DNA of 64,000 nt from Alkalispirochaeta sp. (GTDB lineage Bacteria > Spirochaetota > Spirochaetia > DSM-27196 > Alkalispirochaetaceae), in contig OZ271854.1 of the NCBI GenBank assembly GCA_965601925.1, forward strand, positions 4,032,001 through 4,096,000, written 5' to 3'. The notes beneath the pieces were generated by a model that worked only from the letters and a program-made list of their open reading frames with translations, searched no databases and was not told where the DNA came from. A program made the position numbers and the translations under genes. Positions 3,777 to 43,226 of this stretch are shown one piece after another; position 1 is the stretch's first letter, and each line of letters begins with the position of its first letter.

Positions 3777-3788
3777 AAGGAAGAGTAC

Positions 3789-13670: not shown

Positions 13671-13850
13671 TGTATGTTCAGACTATGCGCTATTTTCGAT
13701 CGAGACAACGGTACGGACGATATCGGCGGAACGTAGTACTGCCGGCGTCATACTCCGTGCAATTGCGGTCGGCGACCGATATTCGGTATAACTGAGGCTA
13801 AGGCGCTCAATATCGCCGCGCCGTCACGCCCTATAGAAGGAGTCCCGAAG

Positions 13851-15539: not shown

Positions 15540-15553
15540 TCCTCGAGACGGTT

Positions 15554-17395
15554 TCATTCGTTCTCGGTGACGAACGCCTGTACCTCCCCCAGGAACGTCT
15601 CGGCGTACCGCTCGAGTTTGCGCATTCCCACGCCGTGACACTCCATAAGCGCCGCCTCGTCGGATGGACGCGTCTCGGCAATCTCGCGAAGCGTGCGGTC
15701 GCTGAAAATGACGTACGGCGGCACGCGTTGCTCCCGCGCGAGACGTAGTCGCACCTCCCGTAAGCGATCGAACAGGGCCGCCCCTTCCTCCGAGAGGGCG
15801 CCCTCAACCGTGCGCTTCGCCGCGGATTTCGGGCGCGACGATCGGCGGCTTTCCGCCCTCCGTGCGGCGACAAACGGCTCCTCTCCGGCGAGCACTGCAC
15901 GCCCGTCACGCGTAATCGCCAGTCCCGAACGGACGCCGCCCTCGCGAGCGAGGAGTCCGCCGCCTTCCAGGTCCCGCAAGAGAGAGAGCCACCACCCTTT
16001 ATCGCGATCGGAACCGACGCCGAAGGTCGGCAGAGCGTGGTGTCCCATGCCGGTGACTCGGTCGGTCGCGTTACCGCAGACGATGTCGGCCAAATGGTGC
16101 GCCCCGAATCGCTGACCGGTCCGATACGCTGCGGACAGAATCTTCTGCGCCGCGACCGTAAGATCCTCCATGACTACTTTCCCGGTGCATACATCGCAGT
16201 TGCCGCACCCTCCGGGATGCTCCTCGCCGAAGTGCGCCAATAGAAGCTTGCGACGGCAGATACCCGAATCGGCGTAGCGCAACACCTCCCGCAGTTGCTC
16301 CTCGGCGCGCTCCCGTTCGTCGCCGTCACGCATCCGCTCGATGTGATATCGAATCGAGGCGATATCGCCCGGTCCGTATAGGAGCAGCGTTTCGGCCGGC
16401 TCTCCATCGCGGGCGGCGCGTCCGGTCTCCTGATAATACGCCTCCAAGCTCCGGGGAAGATCGCCGTGGACGATCCAACGCACATTCGATTTGTCGATCC
16501 CCATGCCGAAGGCGATGGTCGCGACAACGACGTCTACCTCGTCGCGAACGAACGCCTCCTGTCGCCGCGCCCGCGTCGAGGCGTCGAGTCCCGCGTGGTA
16601 TGCAACGGCTCGCACTCCGCGTTCGGTCAGCTTCGCGGCGGTGCGTTCCGTCGATTTGCGCGTCGAGCGATAGACGATCCCCGGCTCGCCGCGGTGATTC
16701 CGAACAAAGTCGAAAATCTGGTTCTCGACGCCCGTTTTGGGAATCACGGCGTACGATATCTCGCGGCGATCGAAACTTGATCGTACCTCAAGGGGGTCGT
16801 GAAGGTGCAGCTGAGAGATGACGTCCCGTTGTACCGCACCGGTCGCCGTGGCGGTGAAGGCGGCGATCGGCGTATCGGGAAACGCGTGCCGCAGCTCGCC
16901 GAGGGAGCGATACTCGGGTCGGAACTCATGTCCCCACTCCGATATACAGTGCGCCTCGTCCACGGCGAACAACTCGATTTCGAGACGCGCCAACTCATCG
17001 CGAAACCACGGTTGCGCGAGACGTTCCGGCGATACGTACAGTAACCGTACCGCGCCGCGTTCAATATCGCGCCACGTACGCTGCGCATCGCCGCGGTCGA
17101 GAGAGCTATTGAGAAAGGCGGCGGCTACCCCGTTTTCGCGCGCGCCGTCCACTTGATCCTTCATGAGTGCGATAAGAGGACTGACGACAACGGTGATGCC
17201 GGTCATCAAAAGGGCCGGCAACTGATAACACAACGACTTGCCGCCTCCCGTTGGAAGTGCGGCAAAGACGTCCCGCCCTTCCAGTATCGCGCGCACGATA
17301 TCCTCTTGATAGGGACGAAACGCGGAGAATCCAAAATGCATTTTGAGCGCCGCCGCGAGGGTGGCGGGAGTGAACTCGTTCATCGGTGCTTCCAT
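15554..17395 (-). CDS. recQ: ATP-dependent DNA helicase RecQ
   Basis: PTGGGKSLCYQ, DEAHCISEWGHEFRP, ATIAFGMGIDK, YYQETGRAARDG, Zn-binding Cys cluster, RQC and HRDC (VPPYVIFSD). Confidence 0.96.
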   Translation of the reverse strand: MEAPMNEFTPATLAAALKMHFGFSAFRPYQEDIVRAILEGRDVFAALPTGGGKSLCYQLPALLMTGITVVVSPLIALMKDQVDGARENGVAAAFLNSSLDRGDAQRTWRDIERGAVRLLYVSPERLAQPWFRDELARLEIELFAVDEAHCISEWGHEFRPEYRSLGELRHAFPDTPIAAFTATATGAVQRDVISQLHLHDPLEVRSSFDRREISYAVIPKTGVENQIFDFVRNHRGEPGIVYRSTRKSTERTAAKLTERGVRAVAYHAGLDASTRARRQEAFVRDEVDVVVATIAFGMGIDKSNVRWIVHGDLPRSLEAYYQETGRAARDGEPAETLLLYGPGDIASIRYHIERMRDGDERERAEEQLREVLRYADSGICRRKLLLAHFGEEHPGGCGNCDVCTGKVVMEDLTVAAQKILSAAYRTGQRFGAHHLADIVCGNATDRVTGMGHHALPTFGVGSDRDKGWWLSLLRDLEGGGLLAREGGVRSGLAITRDGRAVLAGEEPFVAARRAESRRSSRPKSAAKRTVEGALSEEGAALFDRLREVRLRLAREQRVPPYVIFSDRTLREIAETRPSDEAALMECHGVGMRKLERYAETFLGEVQAFVTENE

Positions 17396-17658
17396 TGCCT
17401 ACCTTCGGACTATACTCAAGATACGCTGTTCATCGGAATGCCGCTTGACGTTTTTCGGCAAAGAGGATGCGCGAGCGACTCACCGCCACCCGCGCTTCTC
17501 CCCACACGGCGTTTCCGGACCGGCCCCGCGTCGCTACAACACCCTGGTAACGAAATAGCGTGAACCGTGAAAGAACGCGGCGTATCGTCGCTCTCCGGCG
17601 CCGTTGACGTATTCCAGGACCCATATGACAATAACGGTCAAGATTAGGGAGGCGGACG

Positions 17659-19626
17659 ATGGCATATGAACCGCGGTTTTCGTGGACGGGAGACGCTCAC
17701 ATATCGTCGATGGAGGAGTATAGCGCGCTCTACGAGCAAAGCATAACCGACCCCGATGCGTTTTGGGCCGATCAGGCAAGAGCGCGACTCACCTGGGAGC
17801 GCGAGTTCGATACGGTGCGCGACTGTGACCTCGAAGCCGGAACGATTGCGTGGTTTCTCGGAGGAAGACTCAATGTCGCGCACAACTGTATCGATCGCCA
17901 TGTCGCAACTCGAGGCGATCAGGTAGCGATCCTGTGGGAAGGAGACCGACCCGAGGAGGTGCGCCGCATCACCTATCGAGAGCTTCTCTGCGAAGTATCC
18001 CGCATGGCCAACGTGTTGGTACGCTATGGGGTCCGAAAGGGGGACCGCGTCGCGATCTACCTCCCGATGGTTCCCGAGGCGGCGTTCGCCATGCTCGCCT
18101 GCGCCCGGATCGGTGCGGTGCATACGGTCGTTTTTGCCGGGTTCAGCGCCGACGCCCTCAGAGACCGTATCCTCGATGCCAACGCCGTGGCGGTAATAAC
18201 TGCCGATCAGGGGCTGCGCGGCGGTAAGGTAATTCCTCTCAAACAGACGGTGGACGAGGCGGTCATGGCCTCCCCCAGCGTACGTACCGTCTTCGTCACC
18301 AAACGCACCGGGGCGAAGGTACCCTTCTTTCCTCCGCGAGACGTGGACATCGACGAGGCGATGGTGTCCCAACGTCCCTATTGTCCGCCGGAATCGATGG
18401 ACGCCGAAGATACGCTCTTTCTCTTATATACGTCCGGGAGCACCGGCAAACCCAAGGGCATCGCCCACACGACCGCCGGCTATCTCCTGTATACATCTCT
18501 TACGCATCGTTACGTCTTCGATTATCGCGACGGCGACATATACGCCTGCGTCGCCGACGTAGGATGGATCACCGGTCACAGCTACGTCGTCTACGGCCCC
18601 CTCGCAAACGGGGCGACAACCGTCATGTTCGAATCGACCCCGATCTATCCCGATCCCGGCCGCTACTGGGATATGGTGCAACGCCACCGCATCACTCAGT
18701 TTTACACCGCTCCCACGGCGCTCCGAGCGGTTGCCCGGGAGGGCGACGATTGGGTGACCAAGTACGACCGATCGAGCCTCCGGATTCTCGGCACCGTCGG
18801 CGAGCCGATCAACCCCGATACGTGGGAGTGGTACTACCGCACCGTCGGGGAAGAGCGCTGCGCAGTCGTCGATACGTGGTGGCAGACCGAGACGGGCGGC
18901 ATCATGATCACCCCACTTCCGGGGGCGACGGCGCCGAAGCCGGGGTCGGCCACCTTTCCGTTCTTCGGAGTGCAGCCGGTGGTGTTGGATGAGCAGGGTA
19001 ACGAGGTCGACGGAAACGGCGTGTCGGGCCTCTTGGCGATCAAGGAGGCGTGGCCGAGTATGGCGCGAACCATCCAAGACGACCACCAGCGCTTTCTCAC
19101 CACGTATCTCACGCCGTACAAGGGGTACTACTTCACCGGGGATGGGTGTCGTCGCGACGAGGACGGCTACTACTGGATTACCGGTCGCGTCGACGATGTG
19201 ATCAACGTAAGCGGACATCGCATGGGCACCGCTGAAGTTGAATCGGCGTTGGTCAACCACCCGGCGTGCGCCGAGGCGGCGGTGGTCGGATTTCCCCACG
19301 AGATCAAGGGGCAAGGCATCTTCGCCTACGTCGTTCTCGCTGAAGGGTGGGATGCCGACGCGGAGATCGTCGGCGAGCTTCGAGGCGAGGTTCGCCACCG
19401 CATCGGCCCGATCGCGACACCGGACCACATTCTCGTTGCCGAGGGACTTCCCAAGACGCGATCGGGCAAGATCATGCGCCGCATTCTGCGCAAGATAGCC
19501 GAGCGGCAACACGACTCCGTCGGCGACACCAGCACCCTCGCCGATCCGTCGGTCGTCGACAAGCTCATCGAGTCTCGCTCGGCCCTCCCCGACGAGTGCG
19601 TCACTCTCCACGGGTGCTTCGACTGA
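17659..19626 (+). CDS. acs: Acetate--CoA ligase (AMP-forming)
   Basis: [52 protein letters not shown]. Confidence 0.96.
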
Positions 19627-19677
19627 GGCGGTGCGGCCCTTGCGCGACCCCAAACATTTCGATACCGTCCGACCGAA

Positions 19678-20511
19678 ATGTGGCGTGTTGCAACGGCAAT
19701 ACTACTCGGTCTCGTAATCGCTTTCGTCGGATGTGAGCGAACCATGAGCTCAGTTGTCCTGACGCCCGGCGAGGAATCGCTCGTGCGGGAACTCCGATTC
19801 GACGCCACGATAGTTCTCGATATCAAGCGCCGCGTCGCGGAGCTTGACGAGTGGAGCGGTATCGAGATACGCCGCATGAGTACCGTGCCTCGGTTTCGGA
19901 GTCGGTCACCGCTGACGGATCGCTTGGCGGATGGAATCGTTATCACATTCGATATAGAGCGACCTACCATGGACGAGGCCGCCGTGCTCGGCGACTGGTC
20001 CGCCTTCTGGGCCGGTCTGGAGCGCCTTCGAGCCGGCGAGCGCGTCGTATTTGATCGGAGGACCGCGCTCCGGGAAGCGGGATATCAGATGTATGTCGCA
20101 TCCGACGGTACGACGGGCCCGTACGCCATCGGCTTGGTGCGGTCTCCTGATCGGTACGCGCCCGTTCGATATGCCGGCACCGACGGCGCAAACTACGGGC
20201 TCACGACGGAGGACATCGTTGCTACCCTCCGCAGTTGGGAGGCGTTCGGATCGTTCGATGTGATGGCGGCGGGAGGGACCGGAGCAATGCTCTTCTTCTC
20301 GCGTCTTCCCGACGATCCGGACTCGTTTGTGGAGACGGTACGTGCGTTTTGTCCCGACGCACATGCAGCGGTACCACCCCATCTGTACTCCTATCGAGAG
20401 GCGATGATCCGCGACACTAGGGGCGAGACGGTGGAGAGTATGGAGATCACCGACGCCGCACTGCGCCGGATTCTTCTCGACACTGGAAGAGTCTATCTGT
20501 GGTGGGATTGA
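19678..20511 (+). CDS. DUF4253-like lipoprotein
   Basis: Lipobox FVGC; GTDGANYGLTTEDI, AFCPD, terminal YLWWD. Confidence 0.7.
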   Translation: MWRVATAILLGLVIAFVGCERTMSSVVLTPGEESLVRELRFDATIVLDIKRRVAELDEWSGIEIRRMSTVPRFRSRSPLTDRLADGIVITFDIERPTMDEAAVLGDWSAFWAGLERLRAGERVVFDRRTALREAGYQMYVASDGTTGPYAIGLVRSPDRYAPVRYAGTDGANYGLTTEDIVATLRSWEAFGSFDVMAAGGTGAMLFFSRLPDDPDSFVETVRAFCPDAHAAVPPHLYSYREAMIRDTRGETVESMEITDAALRRILLDTGRVYLWWD

Positions 20512-20578
20512 CGAGATACGGCGCGTTTGCATGGACACGCGCCGCAGTAGCGGCCGGCGTTGCCGGGACCGTCGATCA

Positions 20579-20632
20579 TTGACAGGCGCCGACGGCGCTC
20601 CTATAATAAACTTTCTTTCAGTAACTAAATAA
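20579..20632 (+). promoter_or_regulatory. Consensus sigma70 promoter plus operator-like motif copy 1
   Basis: TTGACA(20579)-17 bp-TATAAT(20602), then AACTTTCTTTCAGTAACTAAATAA (20609-20632). Confidence 0.8.
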
Positions 20633-20653
20633 TTTATGGCGCGAGGTTGAAAC

Positions 20654-22051
20654 ATGAAGCCACCAAAAATAGTGATCATCGGCGCCGGTAGCGCAGTGTT
20701 CGGACAACGGGCGATCTCGGCAATTCTCCGATCCGAACGTCTACGCGGATCGGAGCTCTATCTGGTCGATCTCGACGAGGGTCCGCTCGAGCTTATGACC
20801 CGTCTGGCCGAGCTCATGAACCGCGAATGGGGCTCCGGCGCAACGATACGAAGTACGACCGACCGCCGCAAAGCGCTCCCGGGAGCCGATTTTGTCATCG
20901 TCTCGGTACAGGTAGGGCCGCGCGAAGAGGTATGGGAAAAGGACTGGAGCATCCCGCTGGAGTACGGTATCCGCCAGCCCTACGCGGAAAACAGCGGGCC
21001 CGGCGGGCTCGCCCACACGGCGCGCAACTTGCCGCTCATCATCGATATCGCTCGGGATATGGAGGAGCTCTGCCCCGATGCGCTGTACATGAACTACGTC
21101 AACCCGCTCATTCGCCTCACTCTCGGAATTCACCGCTACACGACGATTAAGAGCGTCGGTATGTGCCATCAACTCCTGTGGGGGTACGCTATGGCGATGG
21201 CGCTTCTCGGCGACCGTTACGGAGTGGACGTGCCTCCGGACGTCAAGATCGATACCAATCACGAACATCGGCATTTTCGAGAGCCTCTCATGGCCGCCGG
21301 GATCAAGCATCTGGACATCAAGGCCGCCGGGATCAACCATTTCTCGTGGGTGTACGACATTCGCGATAAGGATACCGGCGAGGATCTCTATCCCCTCGTA
21401 CGAGAGCGATGGATGCACCTCGAGCGACGCAACTTCGAGCCGCTTTCGCGCGACATGTTCGAGATTTACGGCCTCATGCCGACCCCGAGCGATAGCCATT
21501 TATGCGAGTTTCTGCCCTTTGTCCACGATCCCATTAAGAAGCCGTGGGAGCGGTACGGCCTTCACACGCAGAGCTGGAAAGGCAACCATCGCCGTCGTGC
21601 CGAGCGTCGCGAACTTGCGCAACGGATCGTCGATGGAAAGGAACCGGTCGAGCAACTACGAAATCTGCGCAGCGAAGGTGTTCCGGAAGTCATAGAAGGG
21701 GCCTATTTCAACCTGAATACATATATCCATCAGCTTAACGTGCCCAACGAGGGGCTCATACCGAACCTACCCGCCGACGCTATCGTCGAGGTGCCCGGCA
21801 TCTCATCGGGACTCGGGATACGCGGGATAAGCATGCCGGCACTGCCCGAGCCGATTGCCGAGTTGTGTCGTCGCGAGCTCGCCTATAGCTCAATCGTCGT
21901 CGACGCGTGCCACCATGGGGACCGCGACCTCGCGTTGCAGGCGCTGCTTCTCGATCCGACGGTCAACGACGTCGAGAGCGCGCGGGACGTACTCGATCAT
22001 CTTCTCACCGAGTTCACACAGTACCTCCCCCAGTTTTCCCGTGGTACGTAA
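20654..22051 (+). CDS. Family 4 NAD+/Mn-dependent glycoside hydrolase (MelA-like)
   Basis: IIGAGS, GPGG, NYVNP, GMCH, GINHFSW, NLPADAIVEVP, ALQALLLDP. Confidence 0.93.
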   Translation: MKPPKIVIIGAGSAVFGQRAISAILRSERLRGSELYLVDLDEGPLELMTRLAELMNREWGSGATIRSTTDRRKALPGADFVIVSVQVGPREEVWEKDWSIPLEYGIRQPYAENSGPGGLAHTARNLPLIIDIARDMEELCPDALYMNYVNPLIRLTLGIHRYTTIKSVGMCHQLLWGYAMAMALLGDRYGVDVPPDVKIDTNHEHRHFREPLMAAGIKHLDIKAAGINHFSWVYDIRDKDTGEDLYPLVRERWMHLERRNFEPLSRDMFEIYGLMPTPSDSHLCEFLPFVHDPIKKPWERYGLHTQSWKGNHRRRAERRELAQRIVDGKEPVEQLRNLRSEGVPEVIEGAYFNLNTYIHQLNVPNEGLIPNLPADAIVEVPGISSGLGIRGISMPALPEPIAELCRRELAYSSIVVDACHHGDRDLALQALLLDPTVNDVESARDVLDHLLTEFTQYLPQFSRGT

Positions 22052-23192
22052 TCGGGCACGTTCGCTCCTCCGGAGCCCGGGGGAGCTACTCGACCCCGAT
22101 CGTTTGCGCGATGCGACCGGAGAGCCGATCGTCGGCGTCGAGCGCAGCGCCCTCTCGTCGGGTTTCGCCCATTCCGGGAGCGAACTCTATTTGATAGAGA
22201 CGGTGTTGGAGCCCCGCGGCTCGACGCAGCCGAGCGCCGGACCGCGCTTCGTGCTCAAGCGCCTCTCCTTTGCGTGGGATTGGCTCATGCAAGTCACCGA
22301 GGACCGTCGGTGCCGCTCCGTTACCTTGTGGGAGCAAGGCGTCTTGGACCGCCTACCGGATAGTATCGATACGTGCGTCGTCGACTGCTCGCGGGATGGC
22401 GACGGATGGGCCATCCTCATGCGCGACGTGGGGTTTTCGCTGGTGACCGATACGCCCTTTCTGCCGGAGCAACAGGAGACGTTCCTGAGCGCTATGGCGG
22501 CGATGCACGCGACGTTTCTCGGCGACGAGGAGCTGGACCGGTCGCGGACCGGATTGTGCGGATTGCACCACGTCTACGGGATGTTCTCACGCAGGACTGC
22601 GGCGGATCATCGCGACGCCGGACGAGACATTCATCGACGTATCGAGGAGGGGTGGCGTGCGGTGGGCGAGATGTGTCCCGCCGATGTCGCCGACATCGTG
22701 CTTCCCCTCGTGGAGGATTCGTCGCCTCTCGTCCACGCGCTGCGCCGCTATCCACGAACACTGGTACACGGCGACTTTCGCCACTCCAACATCGGATTTC
22801 TACCGGCGCGATCGTCGTCGGACGGGGGACATACGCGAGTTGGCGGTGCGCGCATGGCCCTTCTGGACTGGCAACTGGCGGTATACGCGCCGCCGTCGGT
22901 CGAGTTGGGGCGTTATCTCGGGGCCAACTCACCCTTTCTTCCGGGAACCAAGGAAGGTATTCTCGCCTACTATCGAACGGCCCTCGAACGCGAACTGGGG
23001 CCGGAACGACCTCTGGAGCCGTGGTGGACACCCCAGTTGGAGCTCGGCATGTTGGGCGGATTCGTTCAGGATGGATGGGCGATCGCGCTCAAAGCGACGA
23101 CGTGGGACGTCGGCGCCGCAACGCGAGATCACTGGAAAGCCGATCTCGAATGGTGGTCCGAGCAGGTAAGACGCGGCGCCGTCCATCTGTAG
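22041..23192 (+). CDS. APH/choline-kinase-like phosphotransferase
   Basis: FVLKR, TLVHGDFRHSNI, LLDWQ; GTG start overlaps the GH4 gene end (start approximate). Confidence 0.8.
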   Translation: MVRNRARSLLRSPGELLDPDRLRDATGEPIVGVERSALSSGFAHSGSELYLIETVLEPRGSTQPSAGPRFVLKRLSFAWDWLMQVTEDRRCRSVTLWEQGVLDRLPDSIDTCVVDCSRDGDGWAILMRDVGFSLVTDTPFLPEQQETFLSAMAAMHATFLGDEELDRSRTGLCGLHHVYGMFSRRTAADHRDAGRDIHRRIEEGWRAVGEMCPADVADIVLPLVEDSSPLVHALRRYPRTLVHGDFRHSNIGFLPARSSSDGGHTRVGGARMALLDWQLAVYAPPSVELGRYLGANSPFLPGTKEGILAYYRTALERELGPERPLEPWWTPQLELGMLGGFVQDGWAIALKATTWDVGAATRDHWKADLEWWSEQVRRGAVHL

Positions 23193-23245
23193 CAAGTGAC
23201 GCTCCCTGCAGACGCGGTTCGGTGCTCAGAATGCGGGACGAGTCG

Positions 23246-24409
23246 TTACCCTCGCAGATTCGAAATACGTCTGAGCGCCGCGTCGGCTCGTTCACGTGAC
23301 GCCGGCGCCGTGCTCCGCCAACGTTCCAGATACGCAATCGCCGCCGCACGATCGATACGCCGCGGCCGTTCCCCCATGATACGGCGATACGAGTCGATAC
23401 AGATCGTCGTTACCGTCTCTTGCGCAAGAGCCAACCCGCGAATCAACGGGGTACCGTCCGCCGTCGGAGCGTAGGGAGAGGCAAAGACGTCGTCGGTGGC
23501 GAGAAATCGATAGAGGCGCAAAAATCGCTCCGTATTATCAGCCAGAGAGGTCCCCGGAAGATACGACAGGTCACGGGGTAGAAAAAACGAGTCGCTCCCC
23601 AACAGCAGGCGGCCGGCATAGGTCGAAAAAAAATCGCGCGCCGCGTCTTGCCGGCTCGGGAATGCGTACTCGTCTACCCTCCTCGCCGCACTGAGTGCGG
23701 GATAGAGATAATTCCCCGGCGCCAGGTCGAAGTACGCATTGGCGTGCTCATCGAGAAATTGTGCCATCCGAATCGGTTCATCGGCGAGAAAAAGTAAATG
23801 CGGGAATATGAAGGTCGTCGCCGGAGCGCCGTTGCATACCATTCCGGCTTGCCGTATAAGCTCCTCAAAGGGCGCAACGTCGCGATTCACATAGCTCCAC
23901 GGCGCGTCGTCTCTTTCCCAGAAAAGCTGCGGATCGGCGACGTGAATGAGCACGGGCATCCCGCAGCGCCCCGCCTCGCGATAGGCATCGAGGTAGCGCG
24001 CGTCATCGAGGGCGACACCCAGCGTCGCGTGGAGCTCGGGCTTACCTTCCCACATCTTGATCCCGCGAAAACCGGCTTGCGCCATTTCGGCTACTTGCCG
24101 CGACGGATTCCACGCCGCCGCGGCTGCGTCCTCGACCACCAACGCGCGGTTGTCGAAGGAGCCGAAACCGTCGGCGAGTCCGTCCAACACAGTACACGCC
24201 GCCAGTACCTCGGGATTGAAGTTGACCGTATCGATGCCGTGTCGAAGGCGTTCGGCGCCGGATGCCGATCGATCGGCTACCCCGGCGGTGGGAAGCGACA
24301 GAACACCGATGCGACGCAAGCCGAGGAGCTCACCATAGCGCCGCAACTCGTCTATCCTCGCCGCGTCGCCGATATGGAGATGGCTATCGATTAATCCCGT
24401 CGGTACCAT
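23246..24409 (-). CDS. Amidohydrolase family (TIM-barrel metallohydrolase)
   Basis: IDSHLH, GFRGIKM, PVLIHVAD, FPH, LLGSD. Confidence 0.85.
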   Translation of the reverse strand: MVPTGLIDSHLHIGDAARIDELRRYGELLGLRRIGVLSLPTAGVADRSASGAERLRHGIDTVNFNPEVLAACTVLDGLADGFGSFDNRALVVEDAAAAAWNPSRQVAEMAQAGFRGIKMWEGKPELHATLGVALDDARYLDAYREAGRCGMPVLIHVADPQLFWERDDAPWSYVNRDVAPFEELIRQAGMVCNGAPATTFIFPHLLFLADEPIRMAQFLDEHANAYFDLAPGNYLYPALSAARRVDEYAFPSRQDAARDFFSTYAGRLLLGSDSFFLPRDLSYLPGTSLADNTERFLRLYRFLATDDVFASPYAPTADGTPLIRGLALAQETVTTICIDSYRRIMGERPRRIDRAAAIAYLERWRSTAPASRERADAALRRISNLRG

Positions 24410-24422
24410 TGATTTGCAAACG

Positions 24423-25313
24423 CTATCGGAGGGCGAAGTCGAGTGGAGCTGCGACCTCACGAGTCATAGTGAGTCGTGCATCGCGGTGACGTTGGACGAT
24501 CGAGGCGGGAAAGGCGGCCGATACGGGTCCGTACAGCATCTTGCGGGCTACGGCGCGCTGCCACGGGCGATTGAGAAACACGCGTACGCTTCGGCTTTCG
24601 GTAATCTGTTTCATGCCGACGGTGACCGCGCGACGCGGGATGCGGTCCCAGGCGCCGCCCAACGCGGTATGGGAGTTGATGGTAATCGTCTCGCGGCTCA
24701 GCTCGACGATGCGCGTGACACTCTCGAAGAAGCCGGCCTCGTCGACGGGAGGGTACGGCGGCTCATTAAAGGCGATGTGACCGTTGATACCTACTCCGGC
24801 AAAGCAAATCTCCGCACCGCCCACCGCGGCAAGCGCGCTATCGTACCCCGACGGATTTCCCGGATCGGGAAAGAACACTTGGTCGGGCCGAAATGCGACG
24901 TCCTCACCGAGGGCTACGAGCGGGCGCACCAACTCCCGGTCGACAAATGCGCGAAACGATAACGGCGAGGAGAAATCGATGAGACGCGGCGGCCCGTCCC
25001 CATCCTCAAGATACTCGTCCATAAAAAAGAGATGGAGGCCCGACAGATTGATGGGGAGTTCGGAACACAATGAGACGAACCGTCGGTATTGAAACGTGGG
25101 TCCGACGGGGACGATGAAGACGGATCGCTTGCCGACTCCGACGTTGCGCCGTATCGCACGGTACATCTCGATGGCGATACGGTAGTAGAGGTCTATCTCG
25201 GTCTCCACAACCTCGACGAGTACCTCCGAATCATCGGGGGTCGCCGGCGATGCGCCGCTTTCCGACCGCTTCGACGGGACGATCGTCGCAGCGTAGAGAT
25301 CGGACTCGCCCAT
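24423..25313 (-). CDS. NagB-like glucosamine-6-phosphate deaminase/isomerase family protein
   Basis: FFMDEY, GVGINGHIAFNEP, TVGMKQI, FPAS; the anion-binding loop reads VPVGPTFQY instead of LPTGxTP. Confidence 0.85.
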   Translation of the reverse strand: MGESDLYAATIVPSKRSESGASPATPDDSEVLVEVVETEIDLYYRIAIEMYRAIRRNVGVGKRSVFIVPVGPTFQYRRFVSLCSELPINLSGLHLFFMDEYLEDGDGPPRLIDFSSPLSFRAFVDRELVRPLVALGEDVAFRPDQVFFPDPGNPSGYDSALAAVGGAEICFAGVGINGHIAFNEPPYPPVDEAGFFESVTRIVELSRETITINSHTALGGAWDRIPRRAVTVGMKQITESRSVRVFLNRPWQRAVARKMLYGPVSAAFPASIVQRHRDARLTMTREVAAPLDFALR

Positions 25314-25316
25314 CGC

Positions 25317-26177
25317 CTATCCTTTGAGTGCGCCCGAGGTAAGACCTTTGATGATCCGCTCGTGCATAAATACGTATACGAGGACGCTGGGGATGATCGT
25401 CAGGACGATTGCGGCGAACATCGAGGTATAGTCGGTAAAAAACTGGCTCGAGAAAAACCGAATGCCGAGTTGCAACGTCCGCGCCCCGATACTCGAAGTA
25501 AGCAGGAGCGCGTAGATGAACTCATTCCACGAAAAGAGAAAGACGAACGTCCCGGCGGTGACGAGCCCCACCCGTGAGAGCGGGAAAATCACGCGAGTGA
25601 AGCGCTGATAAAAGCTGGCACCGTCGATGACCGCCGCCTCTTCGAGCTCCGCCGGAATCGATTTCATGAAGCCGTACATCAGAAAGGTCGAAATCGGGAT
25701 GTTAATCGCCGTATAGGTCAAAATGAGCGCCCACAACGAGTCGTACAGGCCCAATGCGTTGGTCAGTCGAAAATACGGCGCCATGAGGGCGATAATCGGC
25801 ACCAACACTCCGGCGATGATGGCGTTGAGAATCCACTGCTGAAAGCGAAACTTCTCCCGCGAAAAGGCGAATGCCGCCATGGAGGTGATAAGCATCGCCA
25901 ACGCCGTCGAGAAGGTCGAGACGATCACGCTGTTGAGGAAGAGCCGCGGAAGGCTCGATATGCGCATGGCGTTGAGGTAGTTCTCGAACTGCCATACGGC
26001 GGGCAGCGCGAACGGAGCGGTCTGGAGCTCCAAATTAGTCTTGAACGAGCTGATGAGGAGCCATACCAGGGGCGAAAACGTGAAGAAAAAGAAAAAGAGC
26101 AGCACTCCCCACTTGAGTGTCGTGCCGACGACCGAACCGAGGCTCCGGTTGTTGTCGGCCAATGTTGCGTGTGTCAT
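25317..26177 (-). CDS. Carbohydrate ABC transporter permease
   Basis: IPAELEEAAVIDGAS EAA loop, WNEF, terminal GALKG. Confidence 0.93.
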   Translation of the reverse strand: MTHATLADNNRSLGSVVGTTLKWGVLLFFFFFTFSPLVWLLISSFKTNLELQTAPFALPAVWQFENYLNAMRISSLPRLFLNSVIVSTFSTALAMLITSMAAFAFSREKFRFQQWILNAIIAGVLVPIIALMAPYFRLTNALGLYDSLWALILTYTAINIPISTFLMYGFMKSIPAELEEAAVIDGASFYQRFTRVIFPLSRVGLVTAGTFVFLFSWNEFIYALLLTSSIGARTLQLGIRFFSSQFFTDYTSMFAAIVLTIIPSVLVYVFMHERIIKGLTSGALKG

Positions 26178-26190
26178 GGTCTCTCCTCGC

Positions 26191-27081
26191 CTATTGGATT
26201 CGATCGGCCGCGGCGCTGCGTCGACCGAGGGCGCGAATCGTTACGATCGTCAGCACGCCGAGCACTACCAGTGTCGCTCCGATCGAATTGGCACTTCCGT
26301 AATCGAGAAAGCTGAGCATTCTATAGAGTTGAATACCGAGCACCGAGGTGCTGTTGGCCGGACCGCCGTTGGTGAGCAGAAACGTCGCCTCGAAATGTCT
26401 GAGGCCGTACGCCATCGCAAGGGTCATGGCGGTAACGAGGATATCCTTAATCATCGGCAGGGTGATAAACCACTCTTGTTGCAACACGTTCGCGCCGTCG
26501 ATCTCGGCCGCTTCGTAATAACTCTCCGGGATGGACATGGTCGAGGCGAGGACGATGATCATGAAGTACCCGATGTACAACACCTGCTGAATCAATATCG
26601 ACGGGAGCGCCGTACCGATTTCGCCCAGCCAATTGCGCGTCAGATGCTCGAGTCCCGCGAGCTCGAGAAACTGATTGATCGCGCCGTACTCGGCGTTATA
26701 GAGGGCGGCCCACATCATCGCGATAGCGACCTGGCTGATCACATTCGGCAGGAAGTACACGGTTCGAAAAAAACGCCATCCGCGGGGCTTACGGGCGAGG
26801 ATCATCGCCACGAGGGTCGCAAATCCGATCTGTACGAAGCCGAGAGAGAGAAGCCAAATGAAATTATTGCGAAGAGAGATCTGAAACGTTCGATCTTGGA
26901 AATTATCGAAGAAGTTTCGGAGCCCCACAAACTGGGGTGTGCTGATCCCGTTCCATTCGAGTGTGCTGGTAACGAAGACGAACCCCAACGGATAGATGAA
27001 GTAAAGCGTAAAGAGAAGAAGAACCGGCGCCAGAAAGAGCACGATGCCGATACGGTTTGCCTTCCGGGACTGCACAATCAT
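26191..27081 (-). CDS. Carbohydrate ABC transporter permease
   Basis: FVGLRNF, YEAAEIDGA, LTNGGP. Confidence 0.93.
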   Translation of the reverse strand: MIVQSRKANRIGIVLFLAPVLLLFTLYFIYPLGFVFVTSTLEWNGISTPQFVGLRNFFDNFQDRTFQISLRNNFIWLLSLGFVQIGFATLVAMILARKPRGWRFFRTVYFLPNVISQVAIAMMWAALYNAEYGAINQFLELAGLEHLTRNWLGEIGTALPSILIQQVLYIGYFMIIVLASTMSIPESYYEAAEIDGANVLQQEWFITLPMIKDILVTAMTLAMAYGLRHFEATFLLTNGGPANSTSVLGIQLYRMLSFLDYGSANSIGATLVVLGVLTIVTIRALGRRSAAADRIQ

Positions 27082-27109
27082 GATACTGTCGTTCCTTTAA
27101 TGCGTCGGC

Positions 27110-27135
27110 GGGCGCTCCCACGACGGGGAGCGCCC
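27110..27135. other. GC-rich stem-loop between binding-protein and permease genes (mRNA-stabilising or partial terminator)
   Basis: GGGCGCTCCC-N6-GGGAGCGCCC. Confidence 0.55.
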
Positions 27136-27177
27136 ACTCGTTACTGAATTGATACCATTCTACTACGAAACGTTGCG

Positions 27178-28440
27178 CTATCGGTCGGCGGCGACGAGCA
27201 TATCGACGAAACCCTGTGCATCGGTGCTTCCGAGTGCCAGAGCGGCGAGCGCCTGGCCGAACTCGCTCACGACGCGCACCGAGTAGCGGCTTTGGAAGTG
27301 CCCGACGACGAACTCCGCGTCGCTTGCGGCGCGAACGAACTCACGTTGGAGCGGATCGGCTCCGCTTCCCAACTCGTAACGGATGGCAAAAAGCGAGCCG
27401 GCGCGCTCCGAGACCATCGCAACGTTCGCCGGATCGGTCATGAAGCGCATGAAGGTCACGATCGCCTCGGCCTTGCGCGGATCGTCGGTGTTACCGGCCG
27501 CGAGGTTGGAGAGCAGAAACCCGATCTGATGACCCGAGTGGTCGCCGACGCGAGGAGCGGGAGCGATTGCCGTTGCGGCGTGCACCGCCGGGGCGTCTCG
27601 GTTTACGCGACCGATGTACCACGGGCCGTTAATGAACGCGGCGGTGTTACTCGAAAGGAAGTGCCCGCCCGATACACCGGCGTCTCCGCCTACCGCGTCG
27701 CGCGTGGTATTGCCGTCGGAGTACATGCGCTGCAGGACTTCCGCCGCCTCTACATAGATCGGATCACCCAAGGGAAGGTCCCATACGCCCGGGCCGCCCA
27801 GACTTGCTAAGATGTGGCTGTACCACAACATACTCGTCCACGCGTTGGAACCGCCGGTCATCTGGCTCGTGGGAACGATGTCGGCACCCTTCAGTGCGTC
27901 GGCCATCTGCCAGAACTCCTCGATAGTCTCCGGCGGAGCGTCCCAACCGGCCTCCTGGAGAAGCGTCATGTTGTACCAAATGGGAGTAATACCGATCTCG
28001 AAGGGGATCGTCTTGAGTCGGCCGTCGCGGGTGCTCTCTTCGAGGTAACTCGTTACGAAGTCGCCGGCCCAGTCGTCGGTCATGTAGTCGGTAAAATCGA
28101 AGAGCAGCTCACTGTCGTAATACTGAAAGGTCGTAGGATCGGGGTTGAACACGAAAATGTCGGGCGTGTCACCGGTGGCAAGCTGCGTGTTGAGCTTGTC
28201 GCGATAGCCGTCGGTATCGGGATTGGGCTCGATCACGACCCGAATTGCCCCGGCGTGCTGCGTGTTGAACTGCTCGACGAGTTCGGCAATCGGCTCGGCC
28301 TTGGAGTCCTGTCCGACCCAAAAGGTGGGAAAGTTGAGCACAATCTCTCCAGCTTCCTCCTGTTCGCCACCCGCAGCAACGGGAAAGACGATGAGAAGCG
28401 CAAACATCACGCCGATAAGCGCGGAAGTGATGCGATTCAT
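27178..28440 (-). CDS. Carbohydrate ABC transporter substrate-binding protein
   Basis: Signal peptide AAGGEQEE; GDTPDIF, WYNMTLLQEAG..PPET, NGPWYIG; RBS AAGGAGG. Confidence 0.92.
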   Translation of the reverse strand: MNRITSALIGVMFALLIVFPVAAGGEQEEAGEIVLNFPTFWVGQDSKAEPIAELVEQFNTQHAGAIRVVIEPNPDTDGYRDKLNTQLATGDTPDIFVFNPDPTTFQYYDSELLFDFTDYMTDDWAGDFVTSYLEESTRDGRLKTIPFEIGITPIWYNMTLLQEAGWDAPPETIEEFWQMADALKGADIVPTSQMTGGSNAWTSMLWYSHILASLGGPGVWDLPLGDPIYVEAAEVLQRMYSDGNTTRDAVGGDAGVSGGHFLSSNTAAFINGPWYIGRVNRDAPAVHAATAIAPAPRVGDHSGHQIGFLLSNLAAGNTDDPRKAEAIVTFMRFMTDPANVAMVSERAGSLFAIRYELGSGADPLQREFVRAASDAEFVVGHFQSRYSVRVVSEFGQALAALALGSTDAQGFVDMLVAADR

Positions 28441-28452
28441 GGTGCCTCCTTA

Positions 28453-28476
28453 TTATTTTCTTTCTTAAAATAACTA
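28453..28476 (-). promoter_or_regulatory. Operator-like motif copy 2
   Basis: Reverse complement TAGTTATTTTAAGAAAGAAAATAA, downstream of TTGACA (28501-28496) and next to the RBS. Confidence 0.7.
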
Positions 28477-28600
28477 AAACACGGGTTCCAACGGTTGTCA
28501 ATGAAAAGTGGCCGCGGCCAGAGTCCGCGGGGTACATTGACTGACTCGTTCGATCGACCATAGAATAGTAGAGATACTATCCTTCCGGTTGGAGTACTCA

Positions 28601-29245
28601 TTGAAGATCTTCCTTGATACCGCTGATGTACACCAGATAAAAGAGGTCAAGCGTCTCGGCATTCTCGACGGCGTCACGACAAATCCATCGCACGTCGCCA
28701 AGACCGGCCGTCGTCCCGCGGATCTCTACCCCGAAATCTGCGCACTGTGCGACGGACCGGTAAGTCTTGAGACGGTTGCATTGGAGGCGGACGAGATCGT
28801 CGCCGAGGGGCGAGAGCTCGCGCGGATCGCCGATAACGTCGTCGTGAAGGTGCCGGTGATGAAAGAGGGGCTCATCGCAGTGCGAAGTCTCGCGGCGGAG
28901 GGCATCAAGACCAACGTAACGGTGGCCTATTCGGCGACACAGGCGTTGCTCGCGGCAAAGGCGGGGGCGCGTTACATTAGCCCCTTCATCGGTCGTCTCG
29001 ACAGCATATCTCACGAGGGGCGGCAGCTGGTGCACCAGATTCGTGAGATCTACGATAACTACGGGTTTGAGACCGAACTGTTGGTGGCCGCGGTACGCAA
29101 CCCGATGCACGTCCTGGATGCGGCGCTCGTCGGCGCCGATGTGTGCACCATGGCCTTCGACATCCTCATGCAGCTCTACGACCATCCGCTCACCGACGCC
29201 GGCATTGCGCAGTTTCTCGCGGACTGGGACACCGTTCCGCAGTAG
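28601..29245 (+). CDS. Transaldolase of the TalC/FSA family, candidate sulfofructose transaldolase
   Basis: IFLDTAD, GVTTNPS, VVKVP (Schiff-base Lys), SLE (Glu) and SPFIGR (Phe) indicate transaldolase rather than aldolase. TTG start after GGAG; promoter TTGACT-18-TAGAAT. Confidence 0.9.
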   Translation: MKIFLDTADVHQIKEVKRLGILDGVTTNPSHVAKTGRRPADLYPEICALCDGPVSLETVALEADEIVAEGRELARIADNVVVKVPVMKEGLIAVRSLAAEGIKTNVTVAYSATQALLAAKAGARYISPFIGRLDSISHEGRQLVHQIREIYDNYGFETELLVAAVRNPMHVLDAALVGADVCTMAFDILMQLYDHPLTDAGIAQFLADWDTVPQ

Positions 29246-29264
29246 CCTCCTACAGGAGTAAGAC

Positions 29265-30695
29265 ATGGACCCAAAACGACTCTATATAGACGGTCAATGG
29301 ATCGAAACGGGCCGCACGTTTACCGTCGTGAATCCCGGAACGGGGACCCCCTTAGCCGAGGTGGTTTCCGCGGGACGTGCCGAGACGAGGATCGCCGTCG
29401 AGTCGGCCTCGACGGCGCTTCCGGCGTGGAGTGCTCTCACCGGCATCCGGCGCGGAGACTATCTCCTTGCGGTAGCCGACGCGTTGGCGCGCCGTCGCGA
29501 AGAGGTTGCGCGCACCATCACCGAGGAAAACGGGAAGCCCGTCGCACAGAGTCGCGGGGAGGTCGCCGTTGCGATCGACCACCTCCGGTGGTTTGCCGAG
29601 GAGGCGCGGCGCGGCTACGGACGAGTCGTACCCCATCAGGCCGACGGAAAGCGGCACGTCGTCCTCAAGCAGCCGGTCGGTGTCGTCGGCCTGATCGCGC
29701 CGTGGAACTTCCCGTTAGTCCTCGCCATACGTAAGCTCGCGCCCGCCCTCGCCGCGGGGTGTACCACGATTCTCCGCCCCGCGCGCCAGACGCCGCTGTG
29801 TGCGATCGCCCTCGCCGAGTGCGTCGAGGAGGCGAGTCTTCCCCGTGGCGTCTTTCACATGCTCACCGGACCGGGCGAGCCGATCACGGCGGAGTTTATG
29901 GAAAACCCGACGGTGCGCAAAATCAGCTTCACCGGATCGACGGAGGTCGGAAAGAGTCTTATCGAGCAATCGGCCAAGACCGTAACCGATCTCTCGCTGG
30001 AACTCGGCGGCCACGCGCCCCTCCTCGTGTTTGCCGACGCCGATCTGGAGCTCGCCGTCGAGGGAGCGCTGATTACCAAGTTTCGCAACACCGGCCAATC
30101 GTGCATCGCTTCGAACCGTATCTACGTCGAGCGAACGATATACGAGGAGTTTCTCGATCGCTTCACGGAGCGCACGCGGAGTCTGAAAGTCGGTTACGGC
30201 TTAGAAGACGGCGTCGATATCGGACCGGTAATCAACCGAGAGGGTCTCGAGACCGCACTGGCCCATGTGGAAAACGCCGTCGCCGCCGGTGCTCGTCTAT
30301 TGTGCGGCGGTCGCGCGGTTGAGGACACACAAGGCTTCTATCTCGAGCCGACCGTTATCGCCGACGTTCCCGACGACGCGCTGTGCATGCACGAGGAGAC
30401 CTTTGCGCCTGTGGCGCCGGTCACCGCATTCGACTCCGAAGAGGAGGCTCTCGAGCGAGCCAATGCGAGTCGCTACGGGCTTGCCGCCTACGCCTATACC
30501 TCCGATCTCAACCGCAGCTGGCGTCTGGCCGAGCGGCTGGAAGCGGGAACGGTCGCCATCAACGACGCGGTACCGTCGACCAGCAACGCCCCCTTCGGCG
30601 GGGTAAAAGAGAGCGGCCTCGGGCGCGAACTCGGAATCGAGGGCATGGAAGCCTTTATGGAGACGAAGCATATCTCCTACGGCGGTATCTCCTAA
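29265..30695 (+). CDS. NAD(P)-dependent aldehyde dehydrogenase, GabD-like (candidate sulfolactaldehyde dehydrogenase)
   Basis: PWNFP, FTGSTEVG, LELGG, FRNTGQSC, EETFAP, PFGGVKESG. Confidence 0.9.
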   Translation: MDPKRLYIDGQWIETGRTFTVVNPGTGTPLAEVVSAGRAETRIAVESASTALPAWSALTGIRRGDYLLAVADALARRREEVARTITEENGKPVAQSRGEVAVAIDHLRWFAEEARRGYGRVVPHQADGKRHVVLKQPVGVVGLIAPWNFPLVLAIRKLAPALAAGCTTILRPARQTPLCAIALAECVEEASLPRGVFHMLTGPGEPITAEFMENPTVRKISFTGSTEVGKSLIEQSAKTVTDLSLELGGHAPLLVFADADLELAVEGALITKFRNTGQSCIASNRIYVERTIYEEFLDRFTERTRSLKVGYGLEDGVDIGPVINREGLETALAHVENAVAAGARLLCGGRAVEDTQGFYLEPTVIADVPDDALCMHEETFAPVAPVTAFDSEEEALERANASRYGLAAYAYTSDLNRSWRLAERLEAGTVAINDAVPSTSNAPFGGVKESGLGRELGIEGMEAFMETKHISYGGIS

Positions 30696-30731
30696 AGACA
30701 CGCGCCCTTTCTCGATATGGGAGCGCCGACG

Positions 30732-31334
30732 ATGCGCGTTTTTGTGGGAATGCGGTTGGACGATGCGGCCCGCGGACATCTCGCCGACCGATGCGCCGCC
30801 TTCGACGGGACCGCGTTGCGGCGCGTTCAGCCGGCCAACTACCATGTGACGCTCCAGTTCATCGGTGAGGTCTCAGAGCGCGAGGTAGCGTCGATCATAG
30901 GTGTCCTCGACGCCGCCGTTTCTCGTCACTCGATCGCAACGCGGCAGGGTAAAGAGGGACGCATCACGGACGACATCGGCCGGTGGGGTGCGTTTCCGTC
31001 CCGAACGCACCCGCGCGTGGTATGGGCGGGGTTTTCCGACTCGCACGGGGCGCTTCAGGGCCTGGCCGAGTCGGTGCGCGCCGCTCTCGGACGGCTCGAA
31101 CTTGGCGCCCCGAACCGCCCGTTCCGCGCACACGTCACCGTCGGGTACCCCCGTCGTAGCCGAACGGCTTCTTCGGGCGGGAAAATGCTTTCCGACGTTC
31201 TTCGTTCGCCCTTCGGAGCCCCGATTTCGGTGCGATTTCGCTCCATAGCGCTTATCAAGAGCGAACCGGGCGCGGCGGGCTCACGGTATACCGATCTTGC
31301 GGAGTGGCCGTTGTCGACGCACCGTCACGCGTAA
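30732..31334 (+). CDS. thpR: RNA 2',3'-cyclic phosphodiesterase (2H family)
   Basis: MRVFVG, YHVTLQFIG, PRVVWAG, FRAHVTVG (two HxT motifs). Confidence 0.85.
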   Translation: MRVFVGMRLDDAARGHLADRCAAFDGTALRRVQPANYHVTLQFIGEVSEREVASIIGVLDAAVSRHSIATRQGKEGRITDDIGRWGAFPSRTHPRVVWAGFSDSHGALQGLAESVRAALGRLELGAPNRPFRAHVTVGYPRRSRTASSGGKMLSDVLRSPFGAPISVRFRSIALIKSEPGAAGSRYTDLAEWPLSTHRHA

Positions 31335-34943: not shown

Positions 34944-34980
34944 CTCATACCTCGTCGGTACGTAGCGTGTCCGCCGTCTT

Positions 34981-36027: not shown

Positions 36028-36080
36028 ACGCAGCCTCCTTTTCGTTCCGACCTGTGTCGGATTATTCACGATACGAAACG

Positions 36081-37370: not shown

Positions 37371-37372
37371 GC

Positions 37373-37903
37373 CTACGCCCCCTTACGCGGCGCGAGAAGT
37401 GCAATCTGCTTACAAGCCTCCTCTACGCAGACGAGTACCATCAAAGCGTATCCAACCGGGAGGGCCGCATATGCGTATCCGAACGGAAGCCACTCCATCG
37501 TCGAGACGATCCGGCGCATGCCGCGTACCGCGAGGAGCCACCCGTGTCGCACCATCATCAACGCGACGTAGGCGGTGACGGCCAGCGCGATAAGACGGAG
37601 CGCCGTACGAGCGCCTCCCGAGACCTTTTCTACCAAAAACTCAATCGAGACGTGAGCGCCCGAGCGCAATCCGATCGGCGCGCCTAACAGGACCATCCAG
37701 ACCATAAGAATGGTAGAGGCGTCCTCGGTCCACGTGACGGGGCGATTCAACGCATATCGCATGACGACCGAGTAGAAGAGGATCGCGCAGATCACCGCCA
37801 GGATCGCTCCGATTACACCGGATAGAACCGTACACATTCGCCCGTTGAACGCTGCGAGCGCCGACGCCGCCCGTATCACACCACGTCTCCCCTTTTCGGT
37901 CAT
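37373..37903 (-). CDS. TRAP transporter small permease (DctQ)
   Basis: VVMRY..WTED, GAHVSIE; four TM helices. Confidence 0.9.
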   Translation of the reverse strand: MTEKGRRGVIRAASALAAFNGRMCTVLSGVIGAILAVICAILFYSVVMRYALNRPVTWTEDASTILMVWMVLLGAPIGLRSGAHVSIEFLVEKVSGGARTALRLIALAVTAYVALMMVRHGWLLAVRGMRRIVSTMEWLPFGYAYAALPVGYALMVLVCVEEACKQIALLAPRKGA

Positions 37904-37984
37904 TACCGTAGAATCCCTACGTAATGCTAACTCGAGAAATCGAGACGATATGTCGTCCAAACGACAAACGGGAGAAATGGAGCG

Positions 37985-43183: not shown

Positions 43184-43226
43184 CGCACCGCACCGCTGCA
43201 AGAACCAAGGCGAAGAAGGAGCCACC

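Follow-up and report, generated by a model that had tools for sequence, protein, structure and literature searches.

A NagB-like protein with a rebuilt anion pocket and an adjoining metal hydrolase: a possible entry route for an amino sulfosugar into sulfofructose in a spirochaete

Sulfoquinovose turnover makes up a large flux of the sulfur cycle, along pathways that are considered mostly catalogued. The locus described here raises the question of which step of sulfosugar catabolism is served by a NagB-like protein and a metal hydrolase that are encoded behind a sugar importer and next to sulfoglycolysis genes. It lies in a window of 64,000 nucleotides from Alkalispirochaeta sp. (bases 4,032,001-4,096,000 of a 5.05-Mb, one-contig spirochaete genome, 96.7% complete), in which five open reading frames (ORFs) run head-to-tail on the minus strand:

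27178-28440, minus strand: ATP-binding cassette (ABC) solute-binding protein, CUT1-type sugar binder, first of the run (Pfam SBP_bac_8/SBP_bac_1)
26191-27081, minus strand: ABC permease 1 (Pfam BPD_transp_1; syntenic in relatives)
25317-26177, minus strand: ABC permease 2 (Pfam BPD_transp_1)
24423-25313, minus strand: NagB-fold protein of the 'PVGP' clade, 296 residues, predicted 6-sulfo-hexosamine deaminase/isomerase (from fold, distant NagB scores and tree)
23246-24409, minus strand: amidohydrolase-superfamily TIM-barrel metal hydrolase, 387 residues from the ATG, predicted deacylase (from homologues and model)

We propose, tentatively and as a reading that falls somewhat short of probable, that the last two of these proteins deacylate and then deaminate/isomerise an imported amino-sulfo-hexose to sulfofructose. 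The importer would take up a 2-(acyl)amino-2-deoxy-6-sulfo-hexose, a sugar whose carriage by this importer and existence in nature are both presumed, and the hydrolase would strip its N-acyl group. The NagB-like enzyme would then convert the product to ammonia and 6-deoxy-6-sulfofructose, the anionic group of the substrate being presumably a C6 sulfonate, and 6-deoxy-6-sulfofructose would enter the adjacent transaldolase and transketolase branches.

The initial annotation of this DNA had placed both genes behind the ABC importer in one operon, and the tight minus-strand spacing bears this out as an apparent operon, with the NagB-like gene starting 3 nt past the stop of permease 2. A scan of positions 22900-28800 for promoter and terminator consensus found no excess over shuffled sequence (3 vs 2.1 expected; 5 vs 6.1), which within the five-gene run fits a single operon but is no proof of one. 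The hydrolase frame is open from a GTG at 24460 (404 residues), the longer start first annotated, but the ATG at 24409, 13 nt past the NagB-like stop, is favoured by the database copy and by 21 aligned homologues, all of which start there.

The NagB-like protein has no Pfam match even at E<=10, PF01182 included, and it scores 78.3 bits against TIGR00502 (nagB, NCBIfam; cut-off 236.9) and 89.9 bits against NF001684 (cut-off 326). Its best sequence match in the PDB is the NagB structure 2bkv (E 3e-14), and in Foldseek its AlphaFold2 model (pLDDT 91.8) matches the NagB structures 3hn6, 5hj5, 1ne7, 1dea and 2bkv (Borrelia, Vibrio, human, E. coli and Bacillus) with TM 0.71-0.73 at 19-23% identity, with 6-phosphogluconolactonases ranking lower. 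By sequence and model, the kinship of 24423-25313 with NagB is real yet distant. A role as a 6-sulfogluconolactonase was considered and is less likely, as the protein carries NagB motifs and not Pgl motifs and as NagB structures match it better. The elements of its active site are as follows:

25086-25112, minus strand: VPVGPTFQY loop, residues 68-76, shortened by two residues relative to the canonical LPTGxTP phosphate loop
25011-25022, minus strand: MDEY, residues 98-101, catalytic Asp retained
24759-24782, minus strand: GHIAFNEP, residues 178-185, ring-opening His and Glu retained
24558-24569, minus strand: R249-P-W251-Q252 (from the alignment to Borrelia NagB 3hn6, invariant columns and clade comparison)

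The retention of MDEY and GHIAFNEP and the VPVGPTFQY reading of the loop had been noted from the start, and all three are present in the protein; aligned with canonical sequences, the two catalytic motifs are invariant in 32 clade members. The catalytic role of the MDEY Asp is assumed here from the E. coli NagB literature, and we take the canonical phosphate ligands to be Arg172 and Lys208 in E. coli numbering. The pocket was compared through an alignment to Borrelia NagB 3hn6 and an alignment of 39 sequences. Canonical NagB sequences read LPTG(S/G)TP, N(S/A)-RFF and G-x-x-K, whereas the window protein and its clade read PVG--P-x-x-Q-Y at the shortened loop. The equivalent of Arg172 is His215 in the window protein and Asn in the clade consensus, no clade member having Arg there, and the equivalent of Lys208 is Gln252, which is invariant among the spirochaete proteins and Gln or His across the clade. 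Just ahead of the Lys site stands a clade-specific Arg-x-Trp (Arg249 and Trp251), which 32 spirochaete proteins share without exception. A maximum-likelihood tree sets 33 PVGP rows apart from 11 canonical rows with 100/100 support and a branch length of 1.69, and the clade is modest in size, because a profile search of 1.84 billion representatives returned only 153 at 50% identity with E<=1e-30.

With donors of this kind (Arg and Trp, Gln, Tyr), a sulfo group carrying a single negative charge would be a better fit than a dianionic phosphate, and the rebuilt pocket may resemble the Arg/Trp/Tyr sulfonate triad of YihQ. The same pocket, with one Arg, a Trp and a Gln or His, fits any mono-anionic sulfo group, and a second reading arises here, in which the same deacetylase-plus-deaminase chemistry acts on a 6-O-sulfated hexosamine (N-acetylglucosamine (GlcNAc)-6-sulfate or N-acetylgalactosamine (GalNAc)-6-sulfate) to give a ketose 6-sulfate. 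This sulfate-ester alternative we judge quite unlikely when the genomic context considered below is included. The loss of both canonical phosphate ligands in turn argues against an ordinary GlcNAc/glucosamine (GlcN) route, on neutral or phosphorylated sugars, that merely sits beside sulfosugar genes.

Our proposal is a variant on the NagA/NagB route (EC 3.5.1.25 and EC 3.5.99.6). Common to both are a metal hydrolase gene beside a gene for a NagB fold, the retained catalytic Asp and His...Glu of NagB, and a predicted product that is a 6-anionic fructose analogue entering a glycolysis-like pathway. The window differs in a NagB-like protein that scores far under the nagB cut-offs and has an altered phosphate loop and ligands, in a hydrolase that is not NagA, and in a route that implies no kinase or phosphotransferase system (PTS) step.

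The hydrolase has nothing in Pfam at 1e-3 (PF01979 reaches E 0.052 at 13.2 bits), no match in NCBIfam and a best E of 0.53 in a PDB sequence search. Its relatives are more easily recognised: PF04909 (Amidohydro_2) is carried by 17 of the 31 detected homologues in precomputed annotation, and orthologues in related loci score 33-68 bits against its cut-off of 26.4, the window protein itself being unmatched. The AlphaFold2 model (pLDDT 89.8) is an amidohydrolase (beta/alpha)8 TIM barrel, whose structural neighbours (VIA Z 20.2-17) are headed by the uncharacterised 3irs (20.2) and 3cjp (19.7), followed by LigI, IDCase and the L-fuconolactonase 4dlf, and then by phosphotriesterase-like enzymes including PTER (Z 17.0); the LigJ hydratase is also among them, and the ESM Atlas leads to generic Amidohydro_2 clusters only. 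PTER, an N-acetyltaurine amidohydrolase (9efa), shares the barrel and deacetylates a sulfonate-bearing amide; however, identity is 9%, the uncharacterised Amidohydro_2-type barrels score higher, and the fold alone gives no function. In a phylum-wide sample, the hydrolase was found in only 2 of 401 genomes, the window's own included. Its candidate metal-centre residues are:

24374-24382, minus strand: H10-x-H12, after strand 1 (conserved columns, model strand positions)
24056-24058, minus strand: K118, after strand 4 (invariant column, model)
23942-23944, minus strand: H156, after strand 5 (invariant column, model)
23798-23800, minus strand: H204, after strand 6 (invariant column, model)
23591-23593, minus strand: D273, after strand 8 (invariant column, model)

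From sequence and model we infer that the HxH, Lys, His, His and Asp form a two-metal amidohydrolase centre, a series that we presume to be the two-metal pattern of phosphotriesterase-like enzymes. The first description of the protein as an amidohydrolase thus holds at the level of the superfamily, through the barrel fold. As a relative of NagA it does not hold, because hhalign of the hydrolase family with the NagA-type partners of other lineages (described below) gives a probability of 0.9%, and neither TIGR00221 nor any other NCBIfam model matches.

The sulfofructose predicted as the product of the pair would find its enzymes close by, all encoded on the plus strand:

28589-29245, plus strand: transaldolase (TalC/FSA type), sulfofructose transaldolase candidate (PF00923; TIGR00875, 289 bits)
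29265-30695, plus strand: aldehyde dehydrogenase (ALDH), SSADH-like, sulfolactaldehyde dehydrogenase candidate (Pfam, NCBIfam)
31580-33001, plus strand: SqvD/SftI-like (FucI-type) sulfoquinovose isomerase candidate, distant (NF048012, 131 bits vs cut-off 700; PF02952)
39329-41151, plus strand: split transketolase (SqwG/SqwH-like)
41247-41771, plus strand: RpiB/LacAB isomerase (SqwI-like)
41768-45289, plus strand: acylating sulfoacetaldehyde dehydrogenase (SqwD/SauS-like) and ADP-forming CoA ligase pair (SqwKL-like)

The transaldolase gene, which is syntenic with the ALDH gene in relatives, diverges from the importer operon together with the ALDH, a LigT-like and the SqvD/SftI-like gene. An ORF at 28598-29266 on the minus strand was rejected as a gene, being an antisense shadow of the transaldolase gene. 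The second cluster also holds a ROK regulator, a sodium/sulfate-family symporter and TauE, and its SauS-like dehydrogenase scores 522 bits against NF047625 (cut-off 600). Judged from sequence, the window carries a complete bifurcated set for the transaldolase (sulfo-TAL) and transketolase (sulfo-TK) variants of sulfoglycolysis. A sulfo-TK variant ending in sulfoacetate in Spirochaetes and a bifurcated TAL/TK layout, both matching the window, are described in PMC12890257 (section 3.4), PMC9594981 and PMC11659671. The expectation that sulfofructose feeds both downstream branches agrees with the presence of both gene sets beside the pair.

A pattern scan with the hydrolase alignment yielded 49 loci, in which the window proteins and some neighbours were placed by tblastn. 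The counts that follow refer to the 35 spirochaete loci (L003-L036 and L038), with L002, a duplicate of L026, and 14 loci from Chloroflexi and others excluded. By their locus titles, the relatives of the window genome are metagenome-assembled genomes or strains of Alkalispirochaeta, Salinispira and Marispirochaeta. The NagB-like gene adjoins the hydrolase gene in 29 of 30 assessable loci (L018 being the exception), importer genes are present in 26 of 35, and a Gfo/Idh/MocA oxidoreductase directly follows the hydrolase in 26 of 32 assessable loci. A YihQ-type glycoside hydrolase of family 31 (GH31) occurs in 18 of 35, that of L006 matching the E. coli YihQ sulfoquinovosidase with E 3e-194, and at least one sulfoglycolysis marker occurs in 24 of 35. 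The usual spirochaete cassette is accordingly an importer, opened by orthologues of the window's solute-binding protein (45-83% identity), followed by the NagB-like protein, hydrolase, oxidoreductase and YihQ, beside transaldolase/transketolase sulfoglycolysis genes. The window cassette is a reduced form, with a GH4 glycosidase and an APH-type kinase in place of the oxidoreductase and YihQ; the genome has no orthologue of the cassette oxidoreductase (best 29% identity). Since the pair occurs without the oxidoreductase here and in 6 of the 32 assessable loci, it can act alone.

The frequency of the oxidoreductase brings in a different reading, in which no amino group is involved. Sulfoquinovose or its glycosides would be processed by oxidoreductase and hydrolase, either as dehydrogenase and lactonase or through a 3-keto-glycoside (oxidation, elimination, hydration), and the NagB-like protein, standing in for SqvB, would open the pyranose ring or isomerise the aldose to the ketose. 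The pairing of hydrolase and oxidoreductase, which extends to Chloroflexi, suggests other chemistries than ours and is typical of such routes. The structural neighbours of the hydrolase include LigI, L-fuconolactonase 4dlf and the LigJ hydratase, and the PDB matches of the oxidoreductase include 8qc2 and 8qc3 (E 4e-19 and 1e-16), DgpA and a glucuronide 3-dehydrogenase. We take 8qc2 and 8qc3, whose PDB titles say oxidoreductase only, to be SqgA. SqgA is the NAD+-dependent sulfoquinovosidase of GH188 (PMC10755693), but the oxidoreductase scores no better against it than against inositol dehydrogenases, and the window lacks an orthologue. The same paper reports GH188 and GH31 as complementary, yet the oxidoreductase and YihQ are neighbours in the relatives; its passages on GH188 make no mention of NagB-like or amidohydrolase genes.

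The scarcity of SqvB (DUF4867), found in one of the 35 spirochaete loci (L026) and not in the window cluster, also favours this amino-free reading, SqvB being reported in most sulfo-TAL/TK clusters (PMC9594981). L026, however, has SqvB besides the pair, a SqvD-like isomerase is already present in the window, and the window genome keeps the pair without the oxidoreductase. YihS, SqvD/SftI and the putative ring opener SqvB do supply sulfofructose to the same downstream enzymes and occur in the same cluster type, but their folds (PF07221, PF02952 and DUF4867, respectively) are unrelated to those of the pair (PMC9594981). The NagA-type and PIG-L partners found in other lineages would, moreover, be senseless without an N-acyl group. 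To our knowledge, the characterised enzymes with the MDEY and GHIAFNEP motifs are all deaminases. Taken with these points, the amino-free reading is unlikely.

The ordinary GlcNAc/GlcN route has its own support in the window genome, which has no nagA match, no canonical nagB and no other NagB-like gene above 22 bits, as well as an APH-type kinase gene next door. The solute-binding protein, too, is a CUT1 sugar binder of a generic kind, and the chitobiose binder NgcE is among its weak matches in NCBIfam. Its PDB matches are generic sugar binders only, with no entry named sulfoquinovose-binding, and do not bear on the choice of substrate. Besides the lost phosphate ligands, the recurrent linkage to YihQ and TAL/TK genes (24 of 35 loci) and the SsuA-like binders of other lineages, which point to an anionic sulfo ligand, stand against it. 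Relatives G402 and G404 hold a canonical nagA above cut-off elsewhere in addition to the module, which must in these two be more than just a GlcNAc route, and we regard this explanation as very unlikely for the window as well.

In Chloroflexi, distant copies of the hydrolase (25-33% identity) lie beside an oxidoreductase, with one or two NagB-like genes, phosphofructokinase (PFK) and a Cgl0159-like gene nearby and, in L046, a SqvD-like isomerase. L044 and L046 (about 12800-20700) each encode two PVGP-type NagB-like paralogues together with a DegT-type aminotransferase, an NAD-dependent epimerase, PFK and a Cgl0159-like protein. The presence of an aminotransferase in a sulfosugar-like cluster hints further at amino-sugar chemistry.

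Returning to the proposed deacylation and deamination, a metagenome scan with the clade alignment extended the comparison to other lineages. Results refer to the best 80 of 577 confirmed stretches, with neighbours annotated by Pfam on 84 ORFs of 16 loci and by tblastn. Metagenome loci at 36-46% identity carry the PVGP loop. Fifteen loci have at least 35.7% identity and at least 1 kb of downstream sequence, and in 10 of them the gene immediately following the NagB-like one encodes a deacetylase. The partner is of NagA type in nine of these (L062, L063, L064, L067, L068, L071, L072, L073 and L075) and of PIG-L type in L074; on three further contigs that are short or truncated (L061, L077 and L079), a PIG-L gene likewise flanks the NagB-like gene. 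Two of the NagA-type partners were scored against TIGR00221, and at 304.5 and 238.1 bits each lies above the cut-off of 225.65. Three unrelated hydrolase families therefore occupy one slot after PVGP NagB-like genes, as expected if the slot serves N-acyl removal, and the spirochaete hydrolase gains this role by position. This exchange of partners speaks for a deacetylase and a deaminase acting in turn on a 6-sulfo amino sugar.

The metagenome clusters also contain an SsuA-family (aliphatic sulfonate type) binding protein, at 131 bits below its cut-off of 163.5, glycosidase-like genes (GH123 in L056; DUF4838 in L062, L067 and L068), and a class II aldolase with PFK, which by Pfam family is the pair of sulfo-EMP2 (PMC9594981). 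No SqvD-like isomerase was seen in the examined stretches of the deacetylase-partnered clusters. An SsuA-like binder, DUF4838, PVGP NagB-like protein and NagA, with ROK or class II aldolase/PFK, recur in L062, L067, L068, L071, L072 and L075. The gut and fermentation clusters have the look of a route that would use a sulfo amino sugar without desulfating it. They also recall AgaA/AgaI with tagatose-bisphosphate aldolase, in that a NagA-type protein and a NagB-like protein are paired with a class II ketose-bisphosphate aldolase and a kinase; unlike that system, they use an SsuA-like binding protein and not a PTS, the window protein scores 51.7 bits against an AgaI cut-off of 271, and the PVGP clade is without phosphate ligands.

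Part of the case for the sulfate-ester alternative comes from these relatives. The NagA-partnered loci come largely from gut and fermentation metagenomes, to go by contig titles, and 6-sulfated GlcNAc from mucin is abundant in the gut. The SsuA-like binders and hexosaminidase-type genes (GH123, DUF4838) of these clusters fit such a substrate, and 6-sulfated amino sugars are known natural products, whereas a sulfonated amino sugar is not. In the spirochaetes, by contrast, the pair shares its cassette with YihQ and adjoins sulfofructose-splitting enzymes and a SauS-like dehydrogenase, all of them concerned with sulfonate chemistry. Pfam scans of the window and of the examined neighbours revealed no sulfatase domain, and none of the papers listed by our literature search appears to describe a GlcNAc-6-sulfate/NagB/deacetylase route. 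The sulfonate-type neighbours are nonetheless the sole argument for a C-S substrate in spirochaetes.

Several further observations, together with the recurrent oxidoreductase, weigh against the proposed conversion of an amino-sulfo-hexose to sulfofructose. At the level of the enzymes, GlcNAc-6-sulfate fits the evidence equally well. The hydrolase has no profile likeness to the NagA-type partners, and its nearest folds include lactonases, decarboxylases and hydratases. Five of the 15 assessable metagenome loci (L056, L070, L078, L084 and L098) have no adjacent deacetylase gene, and the function of the deacetylase-partnered relatives may differ, because they are only 36-43% identical and belong to other subclades. 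A single importer would have to serve the substrates of YihQ as well as an amino sugar, and in the window genome, which lacks nagA and a canonical nagB, the module may have a general amino-sugar role. A literature search over about 8.4 million papers, with subscription-only papers and supplements outside it, found no paper naming sulfoquinovosamine or an amino C-sulfonated hexose, name variants returning mentions of sulfoquinovose or KDSG only, and none tying sulfoquinovose catabolism to a NagB-like or amidohydrolase gene. In a 2024 review of archaeal glycans (PMC11407970), just two monosaccharides are said to be known to bear a direct C-S bond, sulfofucose being one of them. The initial annotation had mentioned an amino sulfosugar from haloarchaeal envelopes, which the search, having turned up no such sugar, did not confirm. 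Its central idea, NagA/NagB-like chemistry on an amino sulfosugar leading to sulfofructose, fared better: genomic context, pocket, synteny and deacetylase partners speak for it, and the implied kinship of the hydrolase with NagA does not.

What is new here is the PVGP clade, its pocket change, the spirochaete synteny and the displacement of the partner hydrolase. These define a NagB subfamily with a rebuilt anion pocket, and a conserved, uncharacterised gene set inside the sulfoquinovosidase cassettes of two phyla. If the proposal is true, a natural sulfosugar still to be described is to be expected, as is an entry into sulfofructose that needs no kinase, and the PVGP loop plus R-x-W would serve as an annotation marker by which true GlcN-6-P deaminases can be told from these proteins. 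The gut relatives would then suggest desulfation-free use of sulfated or sulfonated amino sugars, with a bearing on mucin use and sulfide production. Should the proposal be wrong, the module would still point to an unknown step of sulfosugar catabolism. A bolder version, which we consider rather doubtful, is that a third natural C-sulfonated sugar, 2-amino (N-acyl) sulfoquinovose, is common enough in saline mats to keep a dedicated module, and that the PVGP branch comprises 6-sulfo-hexosamine deaminases across spirochaetes, Chloroflexi and gut bacteria.

Two genes converge on the hydrolase gene from the other side:

20654-22051, plus strand: GH4 glycosidase
about 22041-23192, plus strand: APH/EcKL-type kinase

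The best PDB match of the GH4 protein is the alpha-galacturonidase LplD (2e-44), followed by 6-phospho-beta-glucosidases, and the ESM Atlas places the kinase in generic APH/EcKL clusters. The two genes also occur together in L003, and in L078 a 62%-identical GH4 gene lies next to a NagB-like gene. The window genome has no YihQ-type GH31 (best 25% identity to YihQ) and nothing identifiable as a sulfoquinovosidase of the YihQ GH31 or GH188 kind, and because a YihQ-type GH31 is missing, the GH4 enzyme may be an NAD/Mn-dependent sulfoquinovosidase.

An acetyl-CoA synthetase gene (17659-19626, plus strand) lies 3.6 kb from the pair, and in L018 an 80%-identical copy adjoins the transaldolase and ALDH genes. 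The encoded enzyme could activate acetate that a deacetylase sets free, or the place of the gene could simply be inherited synteny. Between the ALDH and SqvD-like genes is a LigT-type 2H phosphoesterase gene (30717-31334, plus strand), for which none of the 49 related loci has a counterpart. Between the two sulfoglycolysis operons, at 33825-37960 on the minus strand and beside a Crp-family regulator, are genes for a GldA-like glycerol/glycolaldehyde dehydrogenase and a TRAP transporter (DctPQM), whose substrate may be a C3 sulfonate or the glycerol that sulfoquinovosyl glycerol yields. In five related loci (L012, at 2270-4773, L017, L018, L035 and L036), altronate-dehydratase/SuyB-like (GD_AH) and LarA-like racemase genes stand beside the transaldolase/ALDH genes; L034 has the dehydratase-like gene without the LarA-like one, and the window cluster has neither. 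These genes may encode a sulfolactate racemase and a sulfo-lyase for complete desulfonation.

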